A stretch of DNA of 64,000 nt from an uncultured Gammaproteobacteria bacterium (GTDB taxonomy: Bacteria; Patescibacteriota; Patescibacteriia; Magasanikbacterales; GWA2-37-8), in contig CAYOXC010000001.1 in the NCBI GenBank assembly GCA_964407865.1, positions 267,978-331,977 on the forward strand, given 5' to 3'. A program made the position numbers and the translations under genes. Below the pieces are notes generated by a model. That model did not search any database, was not told the DNA's origin, and saw only the letters and a list, made by a program, of their open reading frames with translations. Shown here one piece after another: positions 3,607-56,601 of the stretch; the stretch's first letter is position 1; each line of letters begins with the position of its first letter.

Positions 3607-4995
3607 ATGTTTCATCGCATCAAACAATTAACCTTACTGGTCGGAGATTGGTTGGCCTTGTATATTTCTCTTTTTTTAAGCTTATGGCTGCGTTTCCTGA
3701 ATATTCCAATCGAACAGTGGAATTTGCTTTTTTATCCAATGACGCATTTGTTTATTGCCGCGGTTATTGTTTTTTTTATTCTTGGCCTATATGATTTAAA
3801 CCAATCAAGAAATCGCTGGCCATTTTTTCAGAAAATAATGATTGCCATGGGTATTTGGATATTTTTAGGCATCTTATATTTTTATCTTAACCCAAATATA
3901 AACGCCCAGCCAAAAACAATTATTTTACTGACAGCAATAATTGGCACATCTCTTATATCCGCCTGGAGAGCCATTCATAATCAATTTTTATCAAAGTCAA
4001 TCTTAAAAACTAATATTGTTTTTGCCGGTATAACTCCGGAAACGCACGAATTGATTAATAAAATTGAAAAAGAACCAGAAATTGGCTACGAAATAGTTGG
4101 TCTTATAAAAAATAAAAACGAAGTATTGCAAGCAACTTTACCTGGACTTGATGGTCACACTGCCGCCGACACTCTTGAAGAATTAAATAGCATGCAAAAG
4201 AAACCTATTCATGTAGTGGTAGTATCCCCGGCTATGGCTCAAAATAGCGATTTGTCCAAAGAGCTTTATTCACAACTTTTTGCCCAAACAAGCGTTATCA
4301 GCCTGGCTAAATTTTATGAAGAAATTCTGAAACGAATACCGCCGTTTACTTTTTCTGAATCGTGGTTTCTAACGAATCTAGACGAGCAAAAGAAAAAAAT
4401 ATACGACAGATTCCGGGTTATTATTGATTTTGTTTTTGCCTCTCTAATGGCGATCTTTTTTGCACTGACTTACCCGATAATTACTCTGGTAATTAAACTC
4501 AATTCTCCAGGACCAGTTTTTTTTATTCAGGAGAGAATAGGTCGGAACGGCAAAAGGTTTAAAATTATTAAATATCGCACCATGCACGCGCTTTCAAACG
4601 ACGGCAGTGCGGAGACAAATGGCGCGCAGTATGCCACAGAAAATGACACAAGAATTACTACTATTGGAAAATTCTTGCGTAAGACTCGCCTTGATGAATT
4701 ACCTCAATTTATAAATATTTTTCGAAACGATATGAGTTTGGTTGGCCCCAGACCGGAACGGCCTGAATTTGTCGACCGACTATCTGATGAGATGCCCTAC
4801 TACAGGCTTAGACATTTAATCAAACCGGGATTAACTGGGTGGGCTCAAATACAAAAATCCTACTATGGCACAATTGAAGAGAATCTGCGCAAGCTGGAAT
4901 ACGACTTGTATTACCTAAAAAACCGCGGTTTATTATTAGATACTGCAATAATCCTCAGAACCTTTAATATTTTGGGACGAATGGCAGGCCGCTAA
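3607..4995 (+). CDS. Undecaprenyl-phosphate sugar phosphotransferase (WbaP/WcaJ-type initiating transferase)
   Basis: 462 aa; multiple N-terminal TM helices; conserved C-terminal sugar-transferase domain with PRPERPEF and KPGLTGWAQI motifs. Confidence 0.85.
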   Translation: MFHRIKQLTLLVGDWLALYISLFLSLWLRFLNIPIEQWNLLFYPMTHLFIAAVIVFFILGLYDLNQSRNRWPFFQKIMIAMGIWIFLGILYFYLNPNINAQPKTIILLTAIIGTSLISAWRAIHNQFLSKSILKTNIVFAGITPETHELINKIEKEPEIGYEIVGLIKNKNEVLQATLPGLDGHTAADTLEELNSMQKKPIHVVVVSPAMAQNSDLSKELYSQLFAQTSVISLAKFYEEILKRIPPFTFSESWFLTNLDEQKKKIYDRFRVIIDFVFASLMAIFFALTYPIITLVIKLNSPGPVFFIQERIGRNGKRFKIIKYRTMHALSNDGSAETNGAQYATENDTRITTIGKFLRKTRLDELPQFINIFRNDMSLVGPRPERPEFVDRLSDEMPYYRLRHLIKPGLTGWAQIQKSYYGTIEENLRKLEYDLYYLKNRGLLLDTAIILRTFNILGRMAGR

Positions 4996-22077: not shown

Positions 22078-22141
22078 ACATTTATACATTGTATTAATAA
22101 TATAGCATAAAACGAGAAAAGAAAAGCCCCGCAAACTTTAT

Positions 22142-22200
22142 CTATAATCAATCATCAAAAAATATATCGATTGATAAGATGTTTGTGTTTGCGGGGGCCA
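22142..22200 (-). terminator. Long hairpin terminator after the 22304-22636 gene
   Basis: CCCCGCAAAC...GTTTGCGGGG 10-bp stem followed by a T-rich run on the minus strand. Confidence 0.45.
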
Positions 22201-22303
22201 AGTCCACAGGCTCTTCGACAAATAACAATCCTTAAAAAAATCGAGCCTTTGGACAACCTGCTTCGCGTTGATTTTGTTCATTCTTACCTCCACACTTACT
22301 TCT

Positions 22304-22636
22304 TTAATCGAACGGAACGTCTTTCTTTCTCTCCAGAACACTACCGGGACAGAAGCGCTTTGATTCAACTACAACCCTAAGGACATCTCCTACTTCACGC
22401 CTTGAAAGCCAACCTTGAACCATGCAGTAACAGATATCGCTCCAACAGGGGGTGAGCGAAACTTCAGTGGTAACAATCCGATCAGGCAGCCTGATAGCTC
22501 TTATCAGGGCGTCAAACGCCCGATCCACCTCCTTTTCGCTAAGTTCTCCCGAACTCACAAGGTCTTTTGCCTTGAAGTACCATTCATATGGTGTGTTTCT
22601 AAGACTTACTATTGCCAGTGTTGCTACCGTCGCCAT
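22304..22636 (-). CDS. Hypothetical protein in GC-rich islet
   Basis: About 110 aa from the ATG at 22634-22636, preceded by GGAGGTG RBS; no recognisable domain; local GC clearly above the genome background. The track ORF extends further upstream to 22711. Confidence 0.4.
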   Translation of the reverse strand: MATVATLAIVSLRNTPYEWYFKAKDLVSSGELSEKEVDRAFDALIRAIRLPDRIVTTEVSLTPCWSDICYCMVQGWLSRREVGDVLRVVVESKRFCPGSVLERKKDVPFD

Positions 22637-22811
22637 AATGCACCTCCTTTCGGTTTTGGCGAAGCTTGAAAATTTCTTACGCACCAGTGCGCTAGAAATT
22701 TTTTTGTTCAATGTTCTATTTATAATTTACCATTTTTTGAATATATAGACGACCCGGTTTGTCAAGACTAAACGTATTTAATTAACCAGTCACTAGCAAT
22801 TTGGTCAATCA

Positions 22812-22868
22812 TCTCTGTAATCAAAAATCTGCCCCAAGGGCAGATTTTTTCCGTGCGGAGGGAGAGGG
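22812..22868. repeat. Direct repeat copy A: terminator hairpin plus 15-nt copy of the tRNA-Ser 3' end (att-like)
   Basis: TCTCTGTAATCAAAAATCTGCCCCAAGGGCAGATTTTTTCCGTGCGGAGGGAGAGGG. The last 15 nt (TGCGGAGGGAGAGGG) equal the 3' end of the tRNA-Ser gene at 24294. Copy B at 24059-24116 is near-identical. Confidence 0.6.
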
Positions 22869-23086
22869 GTTCGGCTTCGACTAAAATTTTCTTCCGAAAA
22901 TTCTGTCTAGCCATCGCCTCGCGCCTGCCTGCCGGCAGGCAGAGTCGCGCCTCACAGCGAAATCAGCGCCCCGCCGTCGCTCGTGGGTAGCAGAACCCCA
23001 ACCCACTCCGCCACACCTCGCGGGTACGATTCATTTTTTCGGCGGAATTTGAGGTTGTGCCAACATCATTGGCACACCACCTAAAA

Positions 23087-23866
23087 TTATTTTACCGCTT
23101 CAACTTTCAAACTTTCAAGTGGCACTCCCTCATATTGTCTTTTACTAATTTCTTTATCCTCTGATAAAACATTAACTTCAAATCCTGCGTCTTTAATAAT
23201 TTTCAAATAGTCTTTTTTGAGCAACGCCCCGCCAACACAGCCAGCTATCAATCCGTCATCATTTTTTTGGGCTTCAGAAAGATTTTTTAATAAAACAATG
23301 TCCGAGAGATACATTCTACCACCTTTTTTCAGCGTTCTATGCGCTTCCCTAAATACTTTTGATTTATCGGGTGCAAGATTGACAACACAATTGCTGATTA
23401 CCACATCAATTGAATTGTCCTCAACAGGCAATTTTTCAATATCGCCTAATCTGAACTCCACATTTTTATAGCCGTATTTGTCGGCGTTGGTCTTAGCTTT
23501 TTCTATCATTTCTTCGGCCATATCCACGCCAATAACTCGGCCGTGCTCACCGACTTTTTTAGCGGCGAGAAAACAATCGAATCCAGCTCCCGAACCCAAA
23601 TCTAAAACAATATCACCCTCTTTTATTTCTCCCATTCCCTTCGGATTACCGCAACCAAGACCAAGATTGGCGTCCGAAACCGATTTAATATCTTGATCAG
23701 AATAGCCAATGCTTTTTGATATTCGCTCATTTTCGACTTTAGAATCGCAACCGCACCTGTTGCAACAACTGCCGCCACCAGCGGCAATCTTGCCATAATG
23801 TTTTTTTACAATTTGTTTAATTTTATCGTTTTGCATAATTTTAGATAATGTTTTTATTAAATGCAA
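23087..23866 (-). CDS. arsM: Arsenite S-adenosylmethionine methyltransferase-like (ArsM family)
   Basis: 259 aa; SAM-binding motif I ([11 protein letters not shown]); ArsM-like cysteine pairs ([20 protein letters not shown]). Confidence 0.75.
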
Positions 23867-24058
23867 TTCTAAACAAAAATTATTTCTGCCGTCTGTTTTT
23901 TCGCCTCGGCGATCGCGGATTCGGCTTCTTGACGCAAATTCCTTGCCTTATTATAAATCATTTTCACTCCTGCGACAATTATTTCTTGCGTTTTTCTGGC
24001 ACAACGATTTTAATTTTTCTCAAATCTTCCGCTGTTATGGCGGCAGTTTGGTTGCTCC

Positions 24059-24116
24059 TCTCTGTAATCAAAAATCTGCCCCAAGGGCAGATTTTTTTCC
24101 GTGCGGAGGGAGAGGG
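24059..24116. repeat. Direct repeat copy B (terminator hairpin plus tRNA-Ser 3'-end copy)
   Basis: Near-identical to 22812-22868 with one extra T in the T-run. Followed by about 180 nt containing TTCGAAT T-loop-like fragments but no foldable tRNA. Confidence 0.6.
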
Positions 24117-24249
24117 CGCTTTGCTATTCGAACTCGCTCGTTTCACTCGCTCTTTGGGAAACCTTCGGGTTTCCCAATACCCTTCCTCAAAATGTGAAAA
24201 CTACCGTTTTCACCCTTTCCCTGTTCGAATCCCTCTAACTTCTCCTACA

Positions 24250-24291
24250 CAATAACAAATAATACACCCTTATAAGGGTGTATTATTTGTT
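24250..24291 (-). terminator. Hairpin immediately 3' of tRNA-Ser
   Basis: AACAAATAATACACCC-ttataa-GGGTGTATTATTTGTT perfect 16-bp inverted repeat. Confidence 0.5.
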
Positions 24292-24293
24292 AT

Positions 24294-24379
24294 GCGGAGG
24301 GAGAGGGATTCGAACCCTCGATACCTTTCGGTATACACGCTTTCCAAGCGTGCGCCATCGACCACTAGGCGACCCCTCC
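24294..24379 (-). tRNA. tRNA-Ser (anticodon GGA) with long variable arm
   Basis: Minus-strand sequence GGAGGGGTCGCCTAGTGGTCGATGGCGCACGCTTGGAAAGCGTGTATACCGAAAGGTATCGAGGGTTCGAATCCCTCTCCCTCCGC folds as a cloverleaf: 7-bp acceptor, D-arm, anticodon loop TTGGAAA, 16-nt variable arm, TTCGAAT T-loop. CCA is not encoded. Confidence 0.85.
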
Positions 24380-24385
24380 AGGGGG

Positions 24386-46350: not shown

Positions 46351-47259
46351 TTATTTAAAAATATCTAAATATTTTTTTGATATGAATAAGCCGTTTTCTC
46401 TAATTTTTTCTGCATTCCATTTACGTTGTCGTAAAATATTTTTTGTCAAATAATTATTTTTTTCAATGTCGCGATAAACGGACTTTTTTTCTTTGAAACC
46501 CTTATCGCTAAGCGAAGAGTTGTCCGCATGTGCTAAAATTAACATATTACCAATCGATTGAATATAATACTTATAATAAAAATCTAACTTATCATCTAAT
46601 TCTAGAAAACGATTTGTTTCACGACTAACAATTGAATCTTTTGCAAGATCGTTCTTCACAATATCAAACCATTCTTTACGGAGGTTTAAAACTCCATTAT
46701 TCATGGTTTGTGGCATGATGTGTTCTAAAGTCTTATCAAATTTTTTAATATCTAATTCAGTAATGTTTGAACCTGCGTTCTTCTTAAGAACTCTAAACAA
46801 TAAATATATTACACCATTCTTTTTTGCACGTAACAATGTTAATCGTGATAATCTGTCAGAGTTATTTTGTTTTAGCTCAGTTAATTTTTTCTTTAATAAT
46901 GCATTTATTTTGGACAACGACCTTTTGTCGTTTAATTGCCACATCAAACTATAAAAGAAATTTTTTATTACTTGAGGTAACGCACCCTCTGACACATTTT
47001 GAAATAAAAATTGTATTGCTTCTACATATTTAATAGCCTCTAAGAAATCTTGGTTAAAACCTTTGGTGGTTTTAATAAATTTTAATAACAAAGGAAGATG
47101 TGATTTATATCCCAAATAATTAATGCAATCTATCGAGTCATTAATTTCTTTAATAATACGGGACCTGTTGGTCGATCTATTTTTTAACAAATCGTAATAC
47201 TTTAAATATTCGATTAATGATTTTAATATCAATAGTGTATCGTTGTTATTTCTTTTCAT
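46351..47259 (-). CDS. GmrSD-family C-terminal half (DUF1524 / HNH-like)
   Basis: 302 aa; LEHIMPQ motif typical of DUF1524; overlaps the upstream DUF262 gene by 4 nt. Confidence 0.6.
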   Translation of the reverse strand: MKRNNNDTLLILKSLIEYLKYYDLLKNRSTNRSRIIKEINDSIDCINYLGYKSHLPLLLKFIKTTKGFNQDFLEAIKYVEAIQFLFQNVSEGALPQVIKNFFYSLMWQLNDKRSLSKINALLKKKLTELKQNNSDRLSRLTLLRAKKNGVIYLLFRVLKKNAGSNITELDIKKFDKTLEHIMPQTMNNGVLNLRKEWFDIVKNDLAKDSIVSRETNRFLELDDKLDFYYKYYIQSIGNMLILAHADNSSLSDKGFKEKKSVYRDIEKNNYLTKNILRQRKWNAEKIRENGLFISKKYLDIFK

Positions 47260-48104
47260 GCATTCATTTTTAAAAAAGGCGTATGATTTTGACGATTAAA
47301 ATTATCTTCTTTTTTAGATTCAGCAAAACAAAAGTATTCAATAAAATTTTCTCTCTCACTATTCTTTGAAAAATAATTATAAAATTCATTCCATAATTTT
47401 AAGGCCTCAATCTGTTTTGATTGCGGGGTTTCGCTTAATAAATAATTTTTAATGAGATCGGCGCTTGATAATTCTACTCGTTTTGAATTAATTGCCTCAA
47501 AAATATCTGACTCCTCTGCAGTGTGACTTAACTCAATAATAACAAACTCAACACCTTGAAATATGAAATTATAAATTTGATTAATTTGTTTTTTTGTCAT
47601 ACCAGTAAAAAGCTCATCGAAAGTTTCGATTGCCAATACCACATTTTCTGATAAAGTTCTGTGTTCACTTGTATAGACATCAATATTATCGCCATTCCAA
47701 ATTACAGCCTTAAAAAATTCATTTCTTTGCGTTTCATTCAAATCAATGTCCAATCTTTGAAATGTGGTTTTACTAAACCATTGTTTTATATCTCTTTTAT
47801 TATCATCGTCGAGCTTGCCTGAACGCAATAAGCAACGTAATAAAATAATTATTGTAATTATGCGTTGTTGGCCGTCAACTATATAAACTTGTTTGTTTTT
47901 ATAGTCTTTAGTAAGCAATGTCCCCAGATATAAAGTACGTTTATCTTTAATACAAACCTCAATATCTGCTACCAACTGTTCAATTAATTCCCTATTCCAC
48001 GCATAAAATCTTTGATATGGCGGAATAACAATTGTATTTTGAAAAAATTTTGTTAAAAAAATACACGGCACCGGGCTTACTATATTTTTTTTAAAGTTTA
48101 TCAT
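47256..48104 (-). CDS. GmrSD-family N-terminal half (DUF262 / ParB-like nuclease domain)
   Basis: 282 aa; VIPPYQRFYAWNRELIEQLVADI matches the DUF262 [IV]PxYQRxYxW core. Confidence 0.7.
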   Translation of the reverse strand: MINFKKNIVSPVPCIFLTKFFQNTIVIPPYQRFYAWNRELIEQLVADIEVCIKDKRTLYLGTLLTKDYKNKQVYIVDGQQRIITIIILLRCLLRSGKLDDDNKRDIKQWFSKTTFQRLDIDLNETQRNEFFKAVIWNGDNIDVYTSEHRTLSENVVLAIETFDELFTGMTKKQINQIYNFIFQGVEFVIIELSHTAEESDIFEAINSKRVELSSADLIKNYLLSETPQSKQIEALKLWNEFYNYFSKNSERENFIEYFCFAESKKEDNFNRQNHTPFLKMNA

Positions 48105-48119
48105 ACTTTATAAAGCTTA

Positions 48120-48641
48120 CTAATTTGGATTAGATAGACCTAATTTAAATAATGGCAAATATTCAAAATAATATTGACAGCCCACAGAAATAATATAATC
48201 AAGGACGTCTTTATATTGTGGTTTACGAAACCAGTCGCTTAGTATATAAATATATTCAACTTCAATATTTAACGGCGCCATCAATTTAGCATACTGTTTT
48301 CTTTTAAAATCACAAGTCTGTAATTTTTCATCAACCGAGCCGGCAACTTTTTGAAATTTAACCTCAATAACAAATAATGTATTGTTAATAATTACATACA
48401 AGGCCTCATCAGGTAAAAGCTTTTTCGATAATATTTTTTTATAATTAACACCCTTAAATTCGAGAAATTTATATAAGGCATTTTTTCTATAGCTTCGCGC
48501 AACTTCTTTATCCTGAAAAAAAATTACCGAACCTTTAACAGCATATCCTTTTTTCTTTTTCAGAAGTGAAAGAATATCTATTTCCTTTTCAAAATTTAAG
48601 CCTGTAATAGTGTTTCCACCCCCAACGCCTTTTTCTTTCAT
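48120..48641 (-). CDS. Putative type II restriction endonuclease
   Basis: 173 aa; PDEALYVIINNTLFVIEVKFQ fits PD-(D/E)xK; 4-nt overlap with the methyltransferase gene. Confidence 0.5.
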   Translation of the reverse strand: MKEKGVGGGNTITGLNFEKEIDILSLLKKKKGYAVKGSVIFFQDKEVARSYRKNALYKFLEFKGVNYKKILSKKLLPDEALYVIINNTLFVIEVKFQKVAGSVDEKLQTCDFKRKQYAKLMAPLNIEVEYIYILSDWFRKPQYKDVLDYIISVGCQYYFEYLPLFKLGLSNPN

Positions 48642-49471
48642 AATTTTATATCTTTTAAACGTTTAACAGATAGATCCAAATATTTTTTCTCCAAATCAAT
48701 ACCGACAAATTTTCTGTTATTTAATATCGCTGCCAAACCTGTCGTGGCCGAACCAGAAAATGGATCTAAAACAATATCACCCTTATCAGTGCTTGCTAAA
48801 ATAATTCTTACCAATAAATCAATTGGTTTTTGAGTTGGATGTTTACCAAATTTTTTCTCATCTTTTTTCGGTGGATAAATTGACCAGACGCTTCGCATTT
48901 GTAAATTTGGTTTTTTTATAAAATCTTCTGACCAATCACCGTTTTTCATCAAACCATAATTAAACTTGTGTTTTCCTTTTTTATCTTTCCTCGCCCAAAT
49001 CAAAGTCTCATGACTAGCGGTAAAAAAACGACAACTTAAATTAGGCGACGCGTTCGGCTTGAACCATGCGATATCGTTTAAAATATGAAATTTTTCTACC
49101 TGTAATGCAAAACCGCATTGATATATTGAATGATACGTACCGCTTATCCAAATCGTACCGCCCGGCTTTAAAACTCGCTGACATGCTTTTATCCATGAAA
49201 GGTGAAATTCAAAATCTTTTTTAACACCATTGCTTATATCCCATTTACCTTTGTTTACACTAACCATTTTTCCGCCATCACAAGTAAAACCGCCGTTAGA
49301 CAAAAGATAAGGGGGATCTGCAAAAATCATGTCGATGGAATTTTCAGGCAACTGTGCCAAGGTATTTAAGCAGTTATCACGATATAAAACAAAATCCCCT
49401 TTCTGAAAATAGGGTTTTTTTGCAATTTTTGATAAAATCTTGGTCATTTTACTCTTTGCCTTTTTGGGCAT
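48638..49471 (-). CDS. DNA methyltransferase (N4-cytosine/N6-adenine, beta class)
   Basis: 277 aa; IFADPPY (motif IV) precedes DPFSGSATTG (motif I). Confidence 0.85.
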   Translation of the reverse strand: MPKKAKSKMTKILSKIAKKPYFQKGDFVLYRDNCLNTLAQLPENSIDMIFADPPYLLSNGGFTCDGGKMVSVNKGKWDISNGVKKDFEFHLSWIKACQRVLKPGGTIWISGTYHSIYQCGFALQVEKFHILNDIAWFKPNASPNLSCRFFTASHETLIWARKDKKGKHKFNYGLMKNGDWSEDFIKKPNLQMRSVWSIYPPKKDEKKFGKHPTQKPIDLLVRIILASTDKGDIVLDPFSGSATTGLAAILNNRKFVGIDLEKKYLDLSVKRLKDIKL

Positions 49472-53070: not shown

Positions 53071-53162
53071 TTGACATTTTTGTCGACAACTGCTACTGTT
53101 TACTGTTTCGTACATTTACAAAAAAATAGCCCCGGAAAGGCTATACAAAAAAGGAGAAAGAA
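53071..53162 (+). promoter_or_regulatory. Promoter/5'UTR cassette copy 1
   Basis: TTGACA at 53071; 17-nt spacer; TACTGT; ACTGTTT ACTGTTT direct repeat; UTR hairpin ATAGCC-ccggaaa-GGCTAT; AAGGAG RBS. Repeated at 54339 and 55659. Confidence 0.5.
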
Positions 53163-54074
53163 ATGTATGTAGCGAGCACAAAAGATGTCCTGGCAGATAT
53201 CGCCAGGAGTATATGGAAAGATTTTTTAAGACCGCTCTTAATTTTTCTTGTCAAAGCATTTGCTGTTTGTCTCGCACTTTGCATCATCGCCTATATCGTC
53301 ATGCTCTTTATGGCTCATTCAGCCATCAAAAAAATGACCGATCCGGATAATACGGAATTCCAAACTTTTGCTAGCGCGATACCACTATTCTGCACTGCAA
53401 AAGAAATTGAAGAAAACGAAGAAGAATTCGCTCTGTTGGCTGACTTTGCCAACGATGTTGAAAGGAAAAAAAATAAATGCACCAATTCGCTTGGTGACGC
53501 CTGGGACTGCGCTTCCGAAGCATGGTCGGCACTTGACGACACTGGAACATACAAGAAAGCCTATCAGAAAGGCAAACGGTTAAACCGGGCAAGAAAGAAA
53601 GTCAAAGGCATAATCGAGCGGACTGTCAAACGTATAAAGGCGATTGAGCCATATGACGAAAACAGCGCCGAGCTGAAAAAAGATGCTCTCTCGCTTGCCG
53701 TCTATATAAACAATAATGCAAACGCATGGGATGTGGCAATAAACAGTGAACGTATTGTAAATGAAATTGGACGACGTGGCGATAAAATCTTTGAAAAAGA
53801 TAATTTGAAAAAAATTTCCAAACATATTTGGGATAAATACCCCCAATCTATCGTCCTGATTTTCGACCCTGTTTACAAAATATTCGCTGACGAGGATAGT
53901 CTCAAAGAAGCAGCGTGGCGTTCAAAGACATTCCGCGAAGCGATGAGTGACGACGGCTGTCTTACCAACATATATACTGACAATATCGCTCCGGCTAGAT
54001 TTGTCGGCTTTGCTGCACTGATGGGAATGATGCAAAAAGATGAGCCGACAGAAGAAGCTGACGATACCGAATAA
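53163..54074 (+). CDS. Membrane-anchored hypothetical protein, paralog A
   Basis: 303 aa; TM anchor; shares DPDN, CTNS, RTVKRI.AIE.YDEN.A.LK.D..SLA.Y.NNN and RSKTFR blocks with 54431-55321. Confidence 0.6.
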   Translation: MYVASTKDVLADIARSIWKDFLRPLLIFLVKAFAVCLALCIIAYIVMLFMAHSAIKKMTDPDNTEFQTFASAIPLFCTAKEIEENEEEFALLADFANDVERKKNKCTNSLGDAWDCASEAWSALDDTGTYKKAYQKGKRLNRARKKVKGIIERTVKRIKAIEPYDENSAELKKDALSLAVYINNNANAWDVAINSERIVNEIGRRGDKIFEKDNLKKISKHIWDKYPQSIVLIFDPVYKIFADEDSLKEAAWRSKTFREAMSDDGCLTNIYTDNIAPARFVGFAALMGMMQKDEPTEEADDTE

Positions 54075-54104
54075 TCTTTCTTTCCTCTTGCCTATTCTAG
54101 GCCA

Positions 54105-54172
54105 CCCCGCACAACAACGCGGGGCCCAGCCCCGCACAGACGCTTGCGTATTGTGCGGGGTTTTTCTTTTTA
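54105..54172 (+). terminator. Tandem-hairpin rho-independent terminator after paralog A
   Basis: CCCCGC-acaacaac-GCGGGG then CCCCGCACA...TGTGCGGGG followed by TTTTTCTTTTT. Confidence 0.6.
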
Positions 54173-54204
54173 ATTGCGTAATCCGATTAATCTATACGTG
54201 ATTG

Positions 54205-54338
54205 CCGGTAGAATATCTGGAGAACTCTATCGGGCCTGCCCGGTAAAATATCTGGAGAACTCTATCGGGCCTGCCCAGTAGAATCTTTGGAGAGCTCTAT
54301 CGGGCCTGCCCGGTAGAAGCCGAAGGCGTTCTACCGGG
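54205..54338. repeat. 35-bp tandem direct repeat x3, closed by a 30-bp palindrome
   Basis: Unit CCGGTAGAATATCTGGAGAACTCTATCGGGCCTGC, 3 slightly variant copies. Ends with CCCGGTAGAAgccgaaggcgTTCTACCGGG immediately before TTGACA. Confidence 0.85.
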
Positions 54339-54430
54339 TTGACATTTACCTGCATAACTGCTAATGTTTACTGTTTCGTTCATTTACAAAAAAATAGCCC
54401 CGGAAAGGCTATACAAAAAAGGAGAAAGAA
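54339..54430 (+). promoter_or_regulatory. Promoter/5'UTR cassette copy 2
   Basis: About 95% identical to 53071-53162. Confidence 0.5.
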
Positions 54431-55321
54431 TTGAATACCGACAACAAACAAATTGATTCACCATATTCAGTGTGGCCTGGATTAAAAAAAGCTCTCAAAG
54501 TAATATTTCTTCTATTTTCTATAATTGTCATTGGTGCACTAATATGTATATATATTGTCACCGATAAGCTGGTACACAAATTGATCGATCCCGATAATCA
54601 CGAAATAGAGTTGATAGCCAGCATGATGCCACTGTGGTGTAGTGTCTATGAATTTCAAGAACATGCTGATGAATATGAAGAATTCGCTAATTTTATAGAT
54701 GAAGCATTACAAAAGAAGGATGAATGCACTAATTCGCCCCTCGGCAGCATTAAATGTGCAAAACAATTGTACGGAACACTTAAAAATCCCGAATCCTATT
54801 TTCGTGGAATTCAAAAAGGTTCGCAGCTATATCAGGCACATAATGAATTCAAGAGTCTTGCTTCACGAACAGTAAAAAGAATTGAAGCAATTGAAACCTA
54901 CGACGAAAATACTGCCAAACTAAAACAAGATTTGGTTTCATTGGCCAGGTACGTTAACAACAACCTAAACATTGTCTCTTTGGTTACCAAATCGGATGAA
55001 ATTCTTGAAGGAATAGAGGAACGTGCGATAATTCTAGGAAATGACGAGCAGCTAATAGATAATATTATAGTGAATACTATGGATAAGTATTATCCTGAAA
55101 TCTTTATAGTACTCCATCCGTTGGTTAGTAAAATTTCCTTTGCTATAATAGTCAACCACGATGAGTTTAATGATGTTAAACTTGAACGCTTATTTGTGCG
55201 CTCTAAAACATTCAGAGATGAGTGGAACCACGGCTGCATCACTAAGATGACATGGCCGGCTGAAAAAAGAAATGTTCGATCACTAATCGAACACATTGTT
55301 CACACCGTAGATAATTGGTAG
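54431..55321 (+). CDS. Membrane-anchored hypothetical protein, paralog B
   Basis: 296 aa from a TTG start at the same spacing from the RBS as the ATG of paralog A. Confidence 0.6.
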   Translation: MNTDNKQIDSPYSVWPGLKKALKVIFLLFSIIVIGALICIYIVTDKLVHKLIDPDNHEIELIASMMPLWCSVYEFQEHADEYEEFANFIDEALQKKDECTNSPLGSIKCAKQLYGTLKNPESYFRGIQKGSQLYQAHNEFKSLASRTVKRIEAIETYDENTAKLKQDLVSLARYVNNNLNIVSLVTKSDEILEGIEERAIILGNDEQLIDNIIVNTMDKYYPEIFIVLHPLVSKISFAIIVNHDEFNDVKLERLFVRSKTFRDEWNHGCITKMTWPAEKRNVRSLIEHIVHTVDNW

Positions 55322-55354
55322 TACCTTTCCTCGGCCACATACTGATCATATCTC

Positions 55355-55421
55355 CCCGCACAACAATGCGGGGCCCAGCCCCGCACAGACGCTTGCGTAT
55401 TGTGCGGGGTTTTTCTTTTTA
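55355..55421 (+). terminator. Tandem-hairpin terminator after paralog B
   Basis: Nearly identical to 54105-54172. Confidence 0.6.
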
Positions 55422-55453
55422 ATTGCGTAATCCGATTAATCTATACGTGATTG

Positions 55454-55657
55454 CCGGTAGAATATCTGGAGAACTCTATCGGGCCTGCCCGGTAAAATAT
55501 CTGGAGAACTCTATCGAGCCTGCCCAGTAGAATCTTTGGAGAACTCTATCGGGTCTGCCCGGTAGAATATCTGGAGAACTCTATCAGGCCTGCCCGGTAG
55601 AATCTTTGGAGAGCTCTATCGGGCCTGCCCGGTAGAAGCCGAAGGCGTTCTACCGGG
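55454..55657. repeat. 35-bp tandem direct repeat x5, closed by the same 30-bp palindrome
   Basis: Same unit as 54205-54338 with five copies; copy number differs between the two loci. Confidence 0.85.
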
Positions 55658-55658
55658 A

Positions 55659-55746
55659 TTGACATTTACCTGCATAACTGCTACTGTTTACTGTTTCGTT
55701 CATTTACAAAAAATGGCCCCGGAAAGGCTGTAACAAGGAGCGAGAA
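55659..55746 (+). promoter_or_regulatory. Promoter/5'UTR cassette copy 3
   Basis: TTGACATTTACCTGCATAACTGCTACTGTTTACTGTTTCGTTCATTTACA...GGCCCCGGAAAGGC. Confidence 0.5.
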
Positions 55747-56601
55747 ATGAAAAATGAAAACAAGTCAAAAAAATCCCCCAGTCAGCTTTTTTGGTGGCCA
55801 ATCTGTCTTGTGGTTATTGTGCTCAGCGCCGTCCTTATTTCTACCGATACTTCGGCGCAAGAGCAGGTGACAAAATTCCGTAATCCGGATGCGAAATTGG
55901 AAAATTGCTTTGAAATCGGTTTTGATTTTGACAAAGGCATCTACATGAACTGGACCGGCAAGGCCGAGGTGAGATACAAGCAATTCGAAAACAAACTGAA
56001 ACGATATGTACGGCACAACAAGGACGACGAAGAAGCCGCCGAAATGCTAAAATTCCTACAAGAGGAAGTCGGACCGATTATGCCCGACTATTTCAATGGA
56101 GACTACGACGCGCGAGTAAAGATCAACAATATTGCCGAGAAGGATAAGAAGAAAAAAGAATGGCTTGAGGGCTCAATCGGTGGCAAGGCAATGACCAAGA
56201 AAAAAGGCGCGGTCAGCCGCGTCCGAGGATACCAATTCCTGAAAGTCTATGATGAAAAAGCTGTGAGCAAGGGGTATGCTAAAGCAAATATTCAAATCCC
56301 TCACGATGTGGAAGCTCTCGGACTGAAACTGTTTACTCTTGACGTAAACGCTGCCGGAGGCAGTGCCTCTGATACGATCACGATTTACAACCGACCGGAC
56401 GGCAAGCCACAGGCTGAAGTCAAAGCCGGCGCGAAAATGTGGGCGCTCGACGGCACCGATGGTTGGATGCGCGTCACCTACGTTGACGACAAGGGAGACC
56501 TTGTCTGGGGCTACGTGCTCGGCCCGAAAATTCAAAAAAAAGTTGAGGAGCTCTCTGGCCAGCCCGTTCCAAAAAGAGAAAAGGGTAAGAAGAAATTTTA
56601 A
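55747..56601 (+). CDS. Membrane-anchored protein with C-terminal SH3b-like domain
   Basis: 284 aa; TM anchor; C-terminal ITIYNRPDGKPQAEVKAGAKMWALDGTDGWMRVTYVDDKGDLVWGYV resembles bacterial SH3 domains. Confidence 0.55.
   Translation: MKNENKSKKSPSQLFWWPICLVVIVLSAVLISTDTSAQEQVTKFRNPDAKLENCFEIGFDFDKGIYMNWTGKAEVRYKQFENKLKRYVRHNKDDEEAAEMLKFLQEEVGPIMPDYFNGDYDARVKINNIAEKDKKKKEWLEGSIGGKAMTKKKGAVSRVRGYQFLKVYDEKAVSKGYAKANIQIPHDVEALGLKLFTLDVNAAGGSASDTITIYNRPDGKPQAEVKAGAKMWALDGTDGWMRVTYVDDKGDLVWGYVLGPKIQKKVEELSGQPVPKREKGKKKF

Follow-up and report, generated by a model that had tools for sequence, protein, structure and literature searches.

A variable slot beside tRNA-Ser(GGA) in a Magasanikbacterium, with an arsM gene between hairpin elements that carry copies of the tRNA end

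Islands of the Islander type are defined by a tyrosine integrase together with a regenerated tRNA gene and a displaced 3′ fragment (PMC4383910), and decayed arrays around tRNA genes have been described for the tycheposons (10.1101/2020.12.28.424599). Here we describe a locus of this general kind in a 64-kb stretch of DNA (called the window below, by which we mean the whole stretch that was analyzed) whose host is a Magasanikbacterium, a member of the candidate phyla radiation. The locus lies directly after the gene for tRNA-Ser(GGA), holds arsM, a gene for an arsenite methyltransferase, and includes two GC-rich, hairpin-closed elements, which we call B and C. It is a miniature, integrase-less variant of the tRNA-seeded island, and its notable property is that the hairpin elements have ends that mimic the end of the tRNA.

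Our preferred reading, held with moderate confidence, is that B and C bound a cargo slot and carry old att-type scars, and that a later recombination across this boundary module placed arsM in the slot or kept it there.

The slot at tRNA-Ser(GGA), its repeats and elements B and C

The gene order gatA, LOG, lgt, tRNA-Ser(GGA) is kept in more than 20 loci of Magasanikbacteria relatives, and the far side of the locus (the family of a gene for a protein of 110 amino acids (aa), then cyclophilin, CDP-OH transferase, YidC and band 7) is kept in four. The searched collections held no relative closer than about 60% protein identity. The content between the two sides varies: in the window it is B, the arsM unit and C; in locus L129, element B and then an open reading frame (ORF) of 152 aa; in L007, the gene for a 306-aa lipoprotein; and in L130, a ZIP transporter gene that starts 8 nucleotides (nt) past the tRNA. 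L127 has a palindrome and one element between tRNA-Ser and the conserved promoter, and no cargo; with the same flanking genes on both sides, it is the empty site that an earlier, sequence-only reading of this DNA had envisaged. The gap from lgt to cyclophilin is 975 nt in L127 versus 2308 nt in the window. The comparison points to the stretch directly after tRNA-Ser(GGA) as an insertion hotspot with variable content, and the tRNA anchors it.

The genes of the region are all on the minus strand. In the sense of the tRNA, tRNA-Ser is followed by the palindrome (24293-24252), element B (24251-24101), ACGG with a terminator-like hairpin, an AT-rich linker, arsM (23836-23087), a conserved hairpin, element C (23016-22854), and ACGG with the same terminator hairpin; then come a promoter, a leader, the 110-aa gene (22636-22304), a 47-codon ORF, a terminator and cyclophilin. 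The features are as follows, with the means of detection in parentheses.

24294..24379, minus strand: tRNA-Ser(GGA), intact and full-length, without an encoded CCA (ARAGORN; Rfam tRNA, 54.6 bits)
24252..24293, minus strand: 42-nt perfect palindrome, ATAACAAATAATACACCCTTA / TAAGGGTGTATTATTTGTTAT, with a U-rich 3′ arm (inverted-repeat search)
24101..24251, minus strand: element B, 151-nt hairpin-closed non-coding element with two internal hairpins, GC 0.497 (fold, alignment)
24043..24116, minus strand: direct repeat copy 1, in which the 15-nt tail of the tRNA and ACGG precede a bidirectional terminator-like hairpin (24070-24096) and a diverged flank of 17 nt (repeat and motif searches)
23837..24042, minus strand: AT-rich linker with a promoter-like TTGTCG-17-TATAAT (23978-23950) and a 30-codon ORF (23869-23961) (promoter scan)
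23087..23836, minus strand: arsM, encoding a 249-aa arsenite S-adenosylmethionine (SAM) methyltransferase (NCBIfam, PDB, Pfam)
23043..23075, minus strand: conserved hairpin after arsM, GTGCCAA-TGATG-TTGGCAC (23057-23075), then AAATTCCG (23043-23050) (comparison)
22854..23016, minus strand: element C, 163-nt GC-rich hairpin-closed element with internal GC hairpins, GC 0.631 (fold, alignment)
22796..22868, minus strand: direct repeat copy 2, with the same tail, ACGG, terminator hairpin (22823-22849) and 17 nt of diverged flank (repeat and motif searches)
22304..22766, minus strand: native flank with a conserved promoter TTGACAAAC, a leader hairpin GCGCACTGGTGCG and the GC-rich 110-aa gene (22304-22636) (synteny)

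The 15-mer TGCGGAGGGAGAGGG from the tRNA end occurs exactly three times in the 64 kb (at 22854, 24102 and 24293), and no further copies are found there even when three mismatches are allowed; shuffled sequences give a mean of 0.62 matches at up to three mismatches, and 2 of 100 shuffles reach three. A 27-nt hairpin, AAAAATCTGCCCCAAGGGCAGATTTTT, has exactly two copies (22823 and 24070), against 0 matches in shuffles. All copies of both sequences lie within 1.5 kb of tRNA-Ser(GGA), and none occurs in the 131 other loci, the same strain excepted. The sequence-only reading was right about the tRNA (24294-24379, by both ARAGORN and Rfam) and about the exact recurrence of its last 15 nt at 24102 and 22854. 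The identical hairpin that it described goes only with the two distal copies and their 57/58-nt repeats; the tRNA is followed by the different 42-nt palindrome. This palindrome is a terminator-like hairpin belonging to tRNA-Ser(GGA); L127 has a palindrome in the equivalent position, but of different sequence. Finally, the repeats had been described as bracketing arsM and a hypothetical gene. They do enclose arsM, the linker and C, but the hypothetical gene (22304-22636, the 110-aa gene) lies outside.

The two distal tail copies form an exact direct repeat of 57/58 nt, the difference being one T within a T-run, and the repeat extends to 73-74 nt (22796-22868 versus 24043-24116; 91.9% identity over 74 nt), with 12 of 17 nt identical in the part past the exact repeat. 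The copies are spaced 1,248 nt apart, and the longest unbroken exact stretch is 38 nt, being split by the T-run indel. The identity ends at the upstream edge of the tail, continues for 58 nt downstream through the terminator, and then fades. Copy 2 lies 30 nt upstream of the native promoter of the 110-aa gene.

The likeness to the tRNA reaches beyond the 15 nt. C ends in CGAACCCCTCTCCCTCCGCA, which matches the tRNA at 18 of 19 positions from the middle of the T-loop onward, and the end of B is composed of GTTCGAAT, a 9-nt insert and CCCTCTCCCTCCGC, with 22 nt matching the tRNA. The direct tail copies in B and C cover the canonical att block of tRNA-Ser, from the T-loop to the 3′ end. The tail of B, including an identical 9-nt insert, is also present in L129, and L127 has a truncated tail at the position matching the terminal copy of C. 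Of the 20 loci that could be scored (21 examined), the window and L127 alone have significant tail copies downstream of tRNA-Ser. No tail repeats were found in 19 more distant tRNA-Ser(GGA) loci, and there are no significant tail copies around the arsM genes located beside tRNA-Ala (L048) and tRNA-Lys (L049).

B and C are each closed by a degenerate inverted copy of the tRNA end on the 5′ side, which pairs with the direct copy on the 3′ side. In B, the inverted copy is GGAGAAGTTAGAGGGATTCGAAC (24223-24251), and the direct copy (24102-24133) reads GTTCGAAT, the 9-nt insert and CCCTCTCCCTCCGCA; the inverted match is 84.5% over 71 nt, and the z scores of the tail copies are 7.7 (inverted) and 9.5 (direct). 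B folds with −50.6 kcal/mol (z −3.2 versus shuffles), and its 3′ half is 94.9% identical over 59 nt to that of L129, compared with 71-80% for the coding DNA of the two genomes. At its start, C has an inverted copy that resembles the tRNA end, GCGGAGTGGGTTGGGGTTC (terminal inverted repeat 19/23, z 3.8). It folds with −89.1 kcal/mol (z −4.7) and has the GC maximum of the window (0.725 over 80 nt); its tRNA-sense strand folds better than the antisense strand by 10 kcal/mol. The domain of C at 22867-22913 is a conserved hairpin with a GGAA tetraloop.

In L127, a single GC-rich element of about 185 nt (fold z −4.5) starts like B and ends like C. It contains a truncated direct tail copy, CGAATCCCTCTC, and its end shares with C the invariant TGGCTAGAC ... 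AGTCGAAGCC around the GGAA-tetraloop hairpin, whose stem differs between C and L127 by four pairs changed on both sides (compensatory changes). For the most part, the bodies of the three elements do not align with one another. The L127 element looks like a fusion or deletion derivative that would have kept the start of B and the end of C. From these counterparts, B and C (or their ancestor) appear to be older than the arsM insertion and native to the sublineage.

Rfam matched tRNA alone (at E up to 10 in the window and 0.5 in the other loci) and gave nothing for B or C, and identities as transfer-messenger RNA (tmRNA), Y-RNA-like, signal recognition particle (SRP) or 6S RNA were rejected for want of ARAGORN or Rfam support. 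We also rejected the 5′ part of C as an arsM-associated 3′ element, which its likeness to GCGAGGGCGAGGCGGAAGGGGGG in L043 and L049 had raised; the L127 alignment shows that the whole of C corresponds to a native element, and that which travels with arsM is just the first hairpin with AAATTCCG.

The sequence-only reading had spoken of a GC-rich arsM islet, and for arsM this did not hold: its GC content is 0.389 and its GC at third codon positions (GC3) is 0.332, compared with 0.387 ± 0.021 and 0.341 ± 0.046 for 30 ORFs of the window, so that its composition is host-like and not foreign. The segment is not uniformly GC-rich; what raises its GC is element C (0.631), together with element B (0.497) and the 110-aa gene (0.477, GC3 0.450), and not arsM.

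The 110-aa gene aligns in five genomes (the window, L007, L127, L129 and L130), upstream of cyclophilin and with a shared promoter and leader. It is therefore a native neighbour outside the islet; the earlier view of it as part of the element is not supported. Similarity between the window and L007 begins at about 22763. The leader (window 22637-22775; L127 5345-5480; L007 11865-12002; L130 5305-5452; L129 860-985) has a strongly conserved TTCGCGTAMTGGTGCG hairpin, TCGCC, GGAGGTG and ATGGCGA, and may be a regulatory leader; despite this conservation, the proteins are just 25-32% identical. The 110-aa protein has no Pfam or NCBIfam match, and a word-based homologue search with its gene returned only the gene itself, the homologues having come via synteny. 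After the 110-aa gene there is a 47-codon ORF (22138-22281) with a GGAGG ribosome-binding site and no family match, which ends inside a long terminator hairpin, GCCCCCGCAAAC ... GTTTGCGGGGC.

As a separate observation on the slot, contigs of other Magasanikbacteria (L002, L005, L006, L013, L016 and L024) end at most about 250 nt past tRNA-Ser(GGA), often in GC-rich hairpin sequence, which suggests that repeats or strain variation break assemblies there in many genomes.

The arsM unit and comparable loci

ArsM matches the NCBIfam model NF008823 with 318.9 bits (cutoff 263), the PDB ArsM chains 4KW7 and 4FR0 with E of about 2.5e-35, and the SAM-binding fold of Pfam Methyltransf_31 with E of 2e-43. 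The 4KW7 alignment pairs LGCGNP, SNCVVNL and AGCVGGA with the corresponding As(III)-binding cysteine motifs; the binding cysteines of the red-alga enzyme are Cys72, Cys174 and Cys224. There are 8000 homologues, and the best 120 listed, at 71-92% identity, include sequences from Kuenenbacteria, Berkelbacteria and DPANN; across these groups and other Patescibacteria the identity is 70-92%. By comparison, identity to the nearest relatives does not exceed 53% for lgt and 62% for cyclophilin.

At the DNA level, arsM is 82-89% (up to 88.7%) identical to other loci, from the ATG start to about 45 nt past the stop codon. The contexts of arsM elsewhere are mutually unrelated (GmrSD/HNH, a PD-(D/E)XK nuclease, a TrwB-like ATPase, an EcoRI-type methylase, a protease and TyrRS). 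The 3′ hairpin and AAATTCCG travel with arsM in L043, L045, L046, L048 and L049, and the stem shows compensatory changes (GCCAGC/GCTGGC, GCCAGTT/AACTGGC and GCCAAT/ATTGGC). Since the identity is confined to the ORF and the 3′ hairpin in unrelated contexts, and exceeds that of the neighbouring genes, arsM, a genuine arsenite methyltransferase gene, is best read as horizontally mobile and cassette-like, in agreement with the sequence-only reading, which had seen in it an accessory, horizontally acquired cargo. The arsM part of the unit would accordingly have come from outside the lineage. The linker at 23837-24042, which has no similarity to the fetched loci, probably supplies the arsM promoter. 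In L049 and L050, the 3′ hairpin sequence is also present about 45 nt upstream of arsM (93% identity).

There are three contexts in which arsM lies less than 500 nt from a tRNA, namely the window, L048 and L051. In L051, arsR and arsM are followed, 57 nt on, by the 3′ end of a convergent tRNA-Ser(CGA). This tRNA is itself followed by a disrupted copy (1722-2070 for the pair), which has the same 15-nt upstream sequence and a GC-rich insertion of about 130 nt located exactly in the T-loop. L052 and L060 have the same arsR-arsM, at 98% identity, up to TGGCGG (the tRNA tail), after which a GC-rich hairpin element of about 110 nt replaces the tRNA (L060 4816-4987). In L052 (2385-6189), a 3.6-kb restriction-modification cargo (HTH, a 373-aa endonuclease candidate and a 669-aa N6-methylase) is bracketed by inverted hairpin elements of about 110 nt that contain GGCGGACGGAATTCCCCCCGAACCCCCCCTTCCGCCCGCC. 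It is also bracketed by 48-nt direct repeats of the tRNA tail with its downstream flank (76% identity), each of which abuts a hairpin element. A cargo bracketed by tail, downstream flank and hairpin element thus occurs outside the window as well, a likeness of architecture that may not extend to homology with B and C.

Several further observations concern arsM loci or the rest of the window. In L043, 185-nt GC-rich elements (8-173 and 4783-4966; 84% identical, inverted) surround a 4.6-kb block with HTH, an EcoRI-type methylase, GmrSD/HNH, a protease and arsM. In L048 (1467-4747, on a 362-kb contig), an arsM whose protein is 91% identical to that of the window lies 213 nt after 16S rRNA, tRNA-Ile and tRNA-Ala, where the 23S rRNA gene usually comes next. 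In the window, 46351-49471 (GC 0.29-0.33) encodes an N6/N4 DNA methylase and a GmrSD-type restriction enzyme that is split, one ORF coding for the N-terminal and another for the C-terminal domain; it is probably a defence islet of its own. Beyond about 50 kb, GC rises to 0.42-0.44. At 53071-56601 there are three tandem paralogous genes (53163-54074, 54431-55321 and 55747-56601) with no Pfam match, each preceded by a conserved 98-nt promoter/leader block; the 214-nt GC-rich intergenic blocks (54105-54318 and 55354-55567) are 98% identical and have 35-nt tandem repeats and terminator-like hairpins.

Origin of the slot and its cargo

The 21-mer TTCGAATCCCTCTCCCTCCGC of the tRNA-Ser end was found in 20 viral contigs. 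In three of them (L134, L144 and L146), the fragment lies outside any tRNA, starts at the T-loop and directly adjoins a tyrosine integrase gene. This has the form of a classical attP and marks the tRNA-Ser end as a real target of integrases. Neither the 57-nt repeat nor arsM gave a match in a search of the viral contigs. Because the same block from T-loop to 3′ end adjoins tyrosine integrases in viral contigs, the tails of B and C, which have the same extent as the viral fragments, would be old att-type integration scars.

Contrary to the sequence-only reading, which took the repeats for attL/attR, the tRNA-like tails are probably not fresh att sites of the arsM insertion. Counterparts of B and C are present in relatives that lack arsM (L129 and L127), so the scars appear to predate arsM, and the repeat identity runs into the terminator. 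The middle site of a tandem integrase array should precede element DNA; what is observed there is a copy of the chromosomal flank, and a simple att core does not account for the identity into the terminator. Moreover, the tail of C aligns with the truncated tail of L127, and so appears older than the split between the window and L127. Since this old tail is now identical over 57 nt to that of B, a recent event is needed, and the 17-nt diverged extension fits two parental sequences that were homologous but not identical.

We therefore infer a recombination event of the following kind. The slot lies between tRNA-Ser(GGA) and the conserved downstream gene, bounded by the native GC-rich hairpin elements B and C, whose tails would have been left by earlier integrase-mediated insertions at the tRNA. 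The present cargo would be a self-contained 1.25-kb unit made up of the promoter-like site, arsM, its 3′ hairpin, C and the terminator. The 57-nt identity of scar and terminator (followed by 12/17) would be much younger than the scars and would stem from one recombination event. DNA with arsM and C, either circular or derived from a relative, could have been inserted by a single crossover, through homologous recombination or the action of a recombinase in trans; alternatively, the event could have been an unequal exchange or gene conversion between B and C. Either way, arsM would have gained a terminator and would be flanked by direct repeats long enough to loop out by homologous recombination.

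A number of points weigh against this account. There is no recombinase in the islet or among the 27 window ORFs scanned (Phage_integrase), the search having covered these ORFs; arsM is the sole ORF longer than 135 aa in the interval from 22.1 to 24.3 kb, and the sequence-only reading had correctly noted that the islet lacks an integrase. Contigs of the same strain, checked for alternative junctions, just break at the repeat. As elements of the B and C types come from no more than two or three genomes, there are very few sequences behind both the compensatory changes and the view that the elements are native. A simple scar model also leaves unexplained why B and C have inverted tRNA-like copies at their 5′ ends, and the conservation of B between the window and L129, which is close to that of the tRNA, could equally fit a functional RNA or a recently transferred element. 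Both orders of events also fit, with either arsM or the duplication coming first.

One alternative, which follows the sequence-only reading, is that a tyrosine integrase specific for tRNA-Ser inserted two small elements in succession (the palindrome with B, and the terminator with arsM and C). The 15-mers would then be attL, a hybrid site and attR, and the integrase genes and most of the element bodies would have been deleted later. The model would account for the intact tRNA at one end and the three tail copies in the same orientation, for the reach of these copies to the T-loop as in the attP fragments beside integrases, and for the empty site and alternative cargos of the relatives; tRNA-seeded islands are known to contain arrays of decayed elements and partial tRNAs (PMC4383910; 10.1101/2020.12.28.424599). 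We nevertheless consider it unlikely, as the distal identity runs 58 nt downstream of the tRNA end through the terminator and not at all upstream, and as B and the 3′ domain of C are present in relatives without arsM, which makes the sites look older than the cargo. Neither an integrase nor a fragment of one is present, elements of 0.19 and 1.25 kb are far below the usual island size, arsM is host-like in composition, and the inverted copies are left unexplained. Another alternative is that B and C function as structured RNAs, or as the 3′ modules of RNAs, in which a G-rich 5′ end pairs with the C-rich tail CCCUCUCCCUCC and a terminator follows. The repeat would be the shared 3′ module of paralogous RNAs, kept alike by selection or gene conversion, with arsM merely between them, and the likeness to the tRNA end would be ancestral or structural and not a recombination site. 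Consistent with this, the folds of B, C and the L127 element are better than those of shuffles (z scores above), and the tRNA-sense strand is more stable than the antisense strand by 10-13 kcal/mol, with 4-6 G-U pairs versus 1. The GGAA-tetraloop hairpin keeps its pairing amid invariant sequence, B is conserved at 94.9% between genomes whose genes are 71-80% identical, and a terminator or U-tract follows each element. Against it are the lack of an Rfam match, the position of B and the L127 element directly downstream of the terminator of the tRNA, with no promoter found upstream of B by the promoter scan, and the mostly unalignable interiors. The elements are also missing in L007, in L130 and at 18 tRNA-Ser loci that are more distant, the covariation comes from two sequences, and the differing cargo genes of the slot are not accounted for. 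As a replacement for the scar reading we find this doubtful, although an RNA role is compatible with scars, and the two are not mutually exclusive.

The remaining two alternatives concern the repeats themselves. An assembly artefact would arise if arsM were on a separate circle of about 1.25 kb, or in another genome sharing the repeat, and had been threaded through the repeat. In same-sample assemblies at k=31, the arsM contig does start and end inside the repeat and the flanking contigs stop there; but the longest exact stretch of 38 nt is shorter than ordinary reads and than larger assembler k values, the two copies have distinct flanks and distinct 17-nt extensions, and the window is from a 463-kb contig. 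We regard this as very improbable. It is hardly credible that the repeats are a terminator motif common throughout the genome, with the 15-mer matching by chance. The hairpin does resemble a bidirectional intrinsic terminator, but two hairpins and three 15-mers in 64 kb, all near the tRNA, with none in the 131 other loci outside the same strain, refute this within the window.

A broader and tentative idea, which we think is probably wrong as it stands, is that B, C, the L127 element and the hairpin elements of L052, L060 and L043 form one undescribed class of tRNA-Ser-linked "landing pads". These may be hairpin-closed modules of 110-190 nt, whose ends mimic the 3′ acceptor and T-arm of the neighbouring tRNA in both orientations, and which, as folded DNA sites or as RNAs, may direct the exchange of single-gene cassettes (arsM, the ZIP transporter, restriction-modification) without an integrase at the locus.

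Returning to the preferred reading of a slot bounded by scarred elements, its wider interest lies in the host. Candidate-phyla bacteria have tiny genomes, and gene exchange among them is little understood. The locus shows a route by which one tRNA seeds a slot for swapping single adaptive genes between lineages without a resident integrase, the genes here being for arsenic methylation, a metal transporter and a lipoprotein. If B and C are active recombination sites or RNAs, they would provide a new finder of accessory genes, and possibly a new recombination substrate; if they are merely scars, the locus would be a clean miniature case of ordinary tRNA-island decay.

Comparison with known systems

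Recurrent horizontal transfer of arsM has been published (PMC5552862), and the arsM of the window agrees with it in that its homologues are far more similar across lineages than are those of housekeeping genes. The published case rests on gene phylogeny alone, however, and does not include a cassette-like unit or a tRNA-linked insertion in candidate-phyla bacteria.

The locus resembles Islander-type islands (PMC4383910) in having an intact tRNA at one end with co-oriented copies of the T-loop-to-3′-end block further downstream, in its accessory, horizontally acquired cargo, in the empty site of a relative, and in the 21-nt tRNA-Ser attP block beside integrases of viral contigs. It differs from them in that it has no integrase and consists of a 1.25-kb single-gene unit, and in that the repeat identity continues into the terminator rather than ending at the tRNA end. 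In addition, its fragments are embedded in hairpin elements with inverted copies, and apparently predate the cargo.

With the tycheposons of Prochlorococcus (10.1101/2020.12.28.424599) it shares a streamlined genome, variable islands seeded by specific tRNAs and niche-adaptive cargo (metal or nutrient), and successive integrations, decayed elements and scattered partial tRNAs are likewise features of tycheposon-seeded islands. Tycheposons, however, are 10-20 kb long and have their own tyrosine or serine recombinase and replication genes, none of which is in the islet, and the host of the window is a candidate-phyla bacterium.

Integron cassettes, and attC clusters without an integrase, are similar in combining a single short ORF with an imperfect palindrome. 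Elsewhere arsM is also bracketed by repeated hairpins, and in the window the DNA similarity is limited to the ORF and a short 3′ site. We rejected an identity with attC because, by inspection, the ends of B and C are GTTC...GAAC and not RYYYAAC...GTTRRRY, and no IntI was found. A further difference is that hairpin elements occur in both orientations around cargo (L043 and L052), and that insertion is at a tRNA end and not at attI.

The Correia and RUP sequences are miniature inverted-repeat elements. B and C are like them in being non-coding, intergenic and strongly folding, with a length of 150-190 nt and terminal inverted repeats. An assignment to miniature inverted-repeat transposable elements (MITEs) was rejected, since B, C and the L127 element have unrelated interiors and no target-site duplication, and each is present in a single copy (in the 64 kb and the 131 loci). 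Unlike those of MITEs, the inverted repeats of B and C are copies of the end of the neighbouring tRNA.

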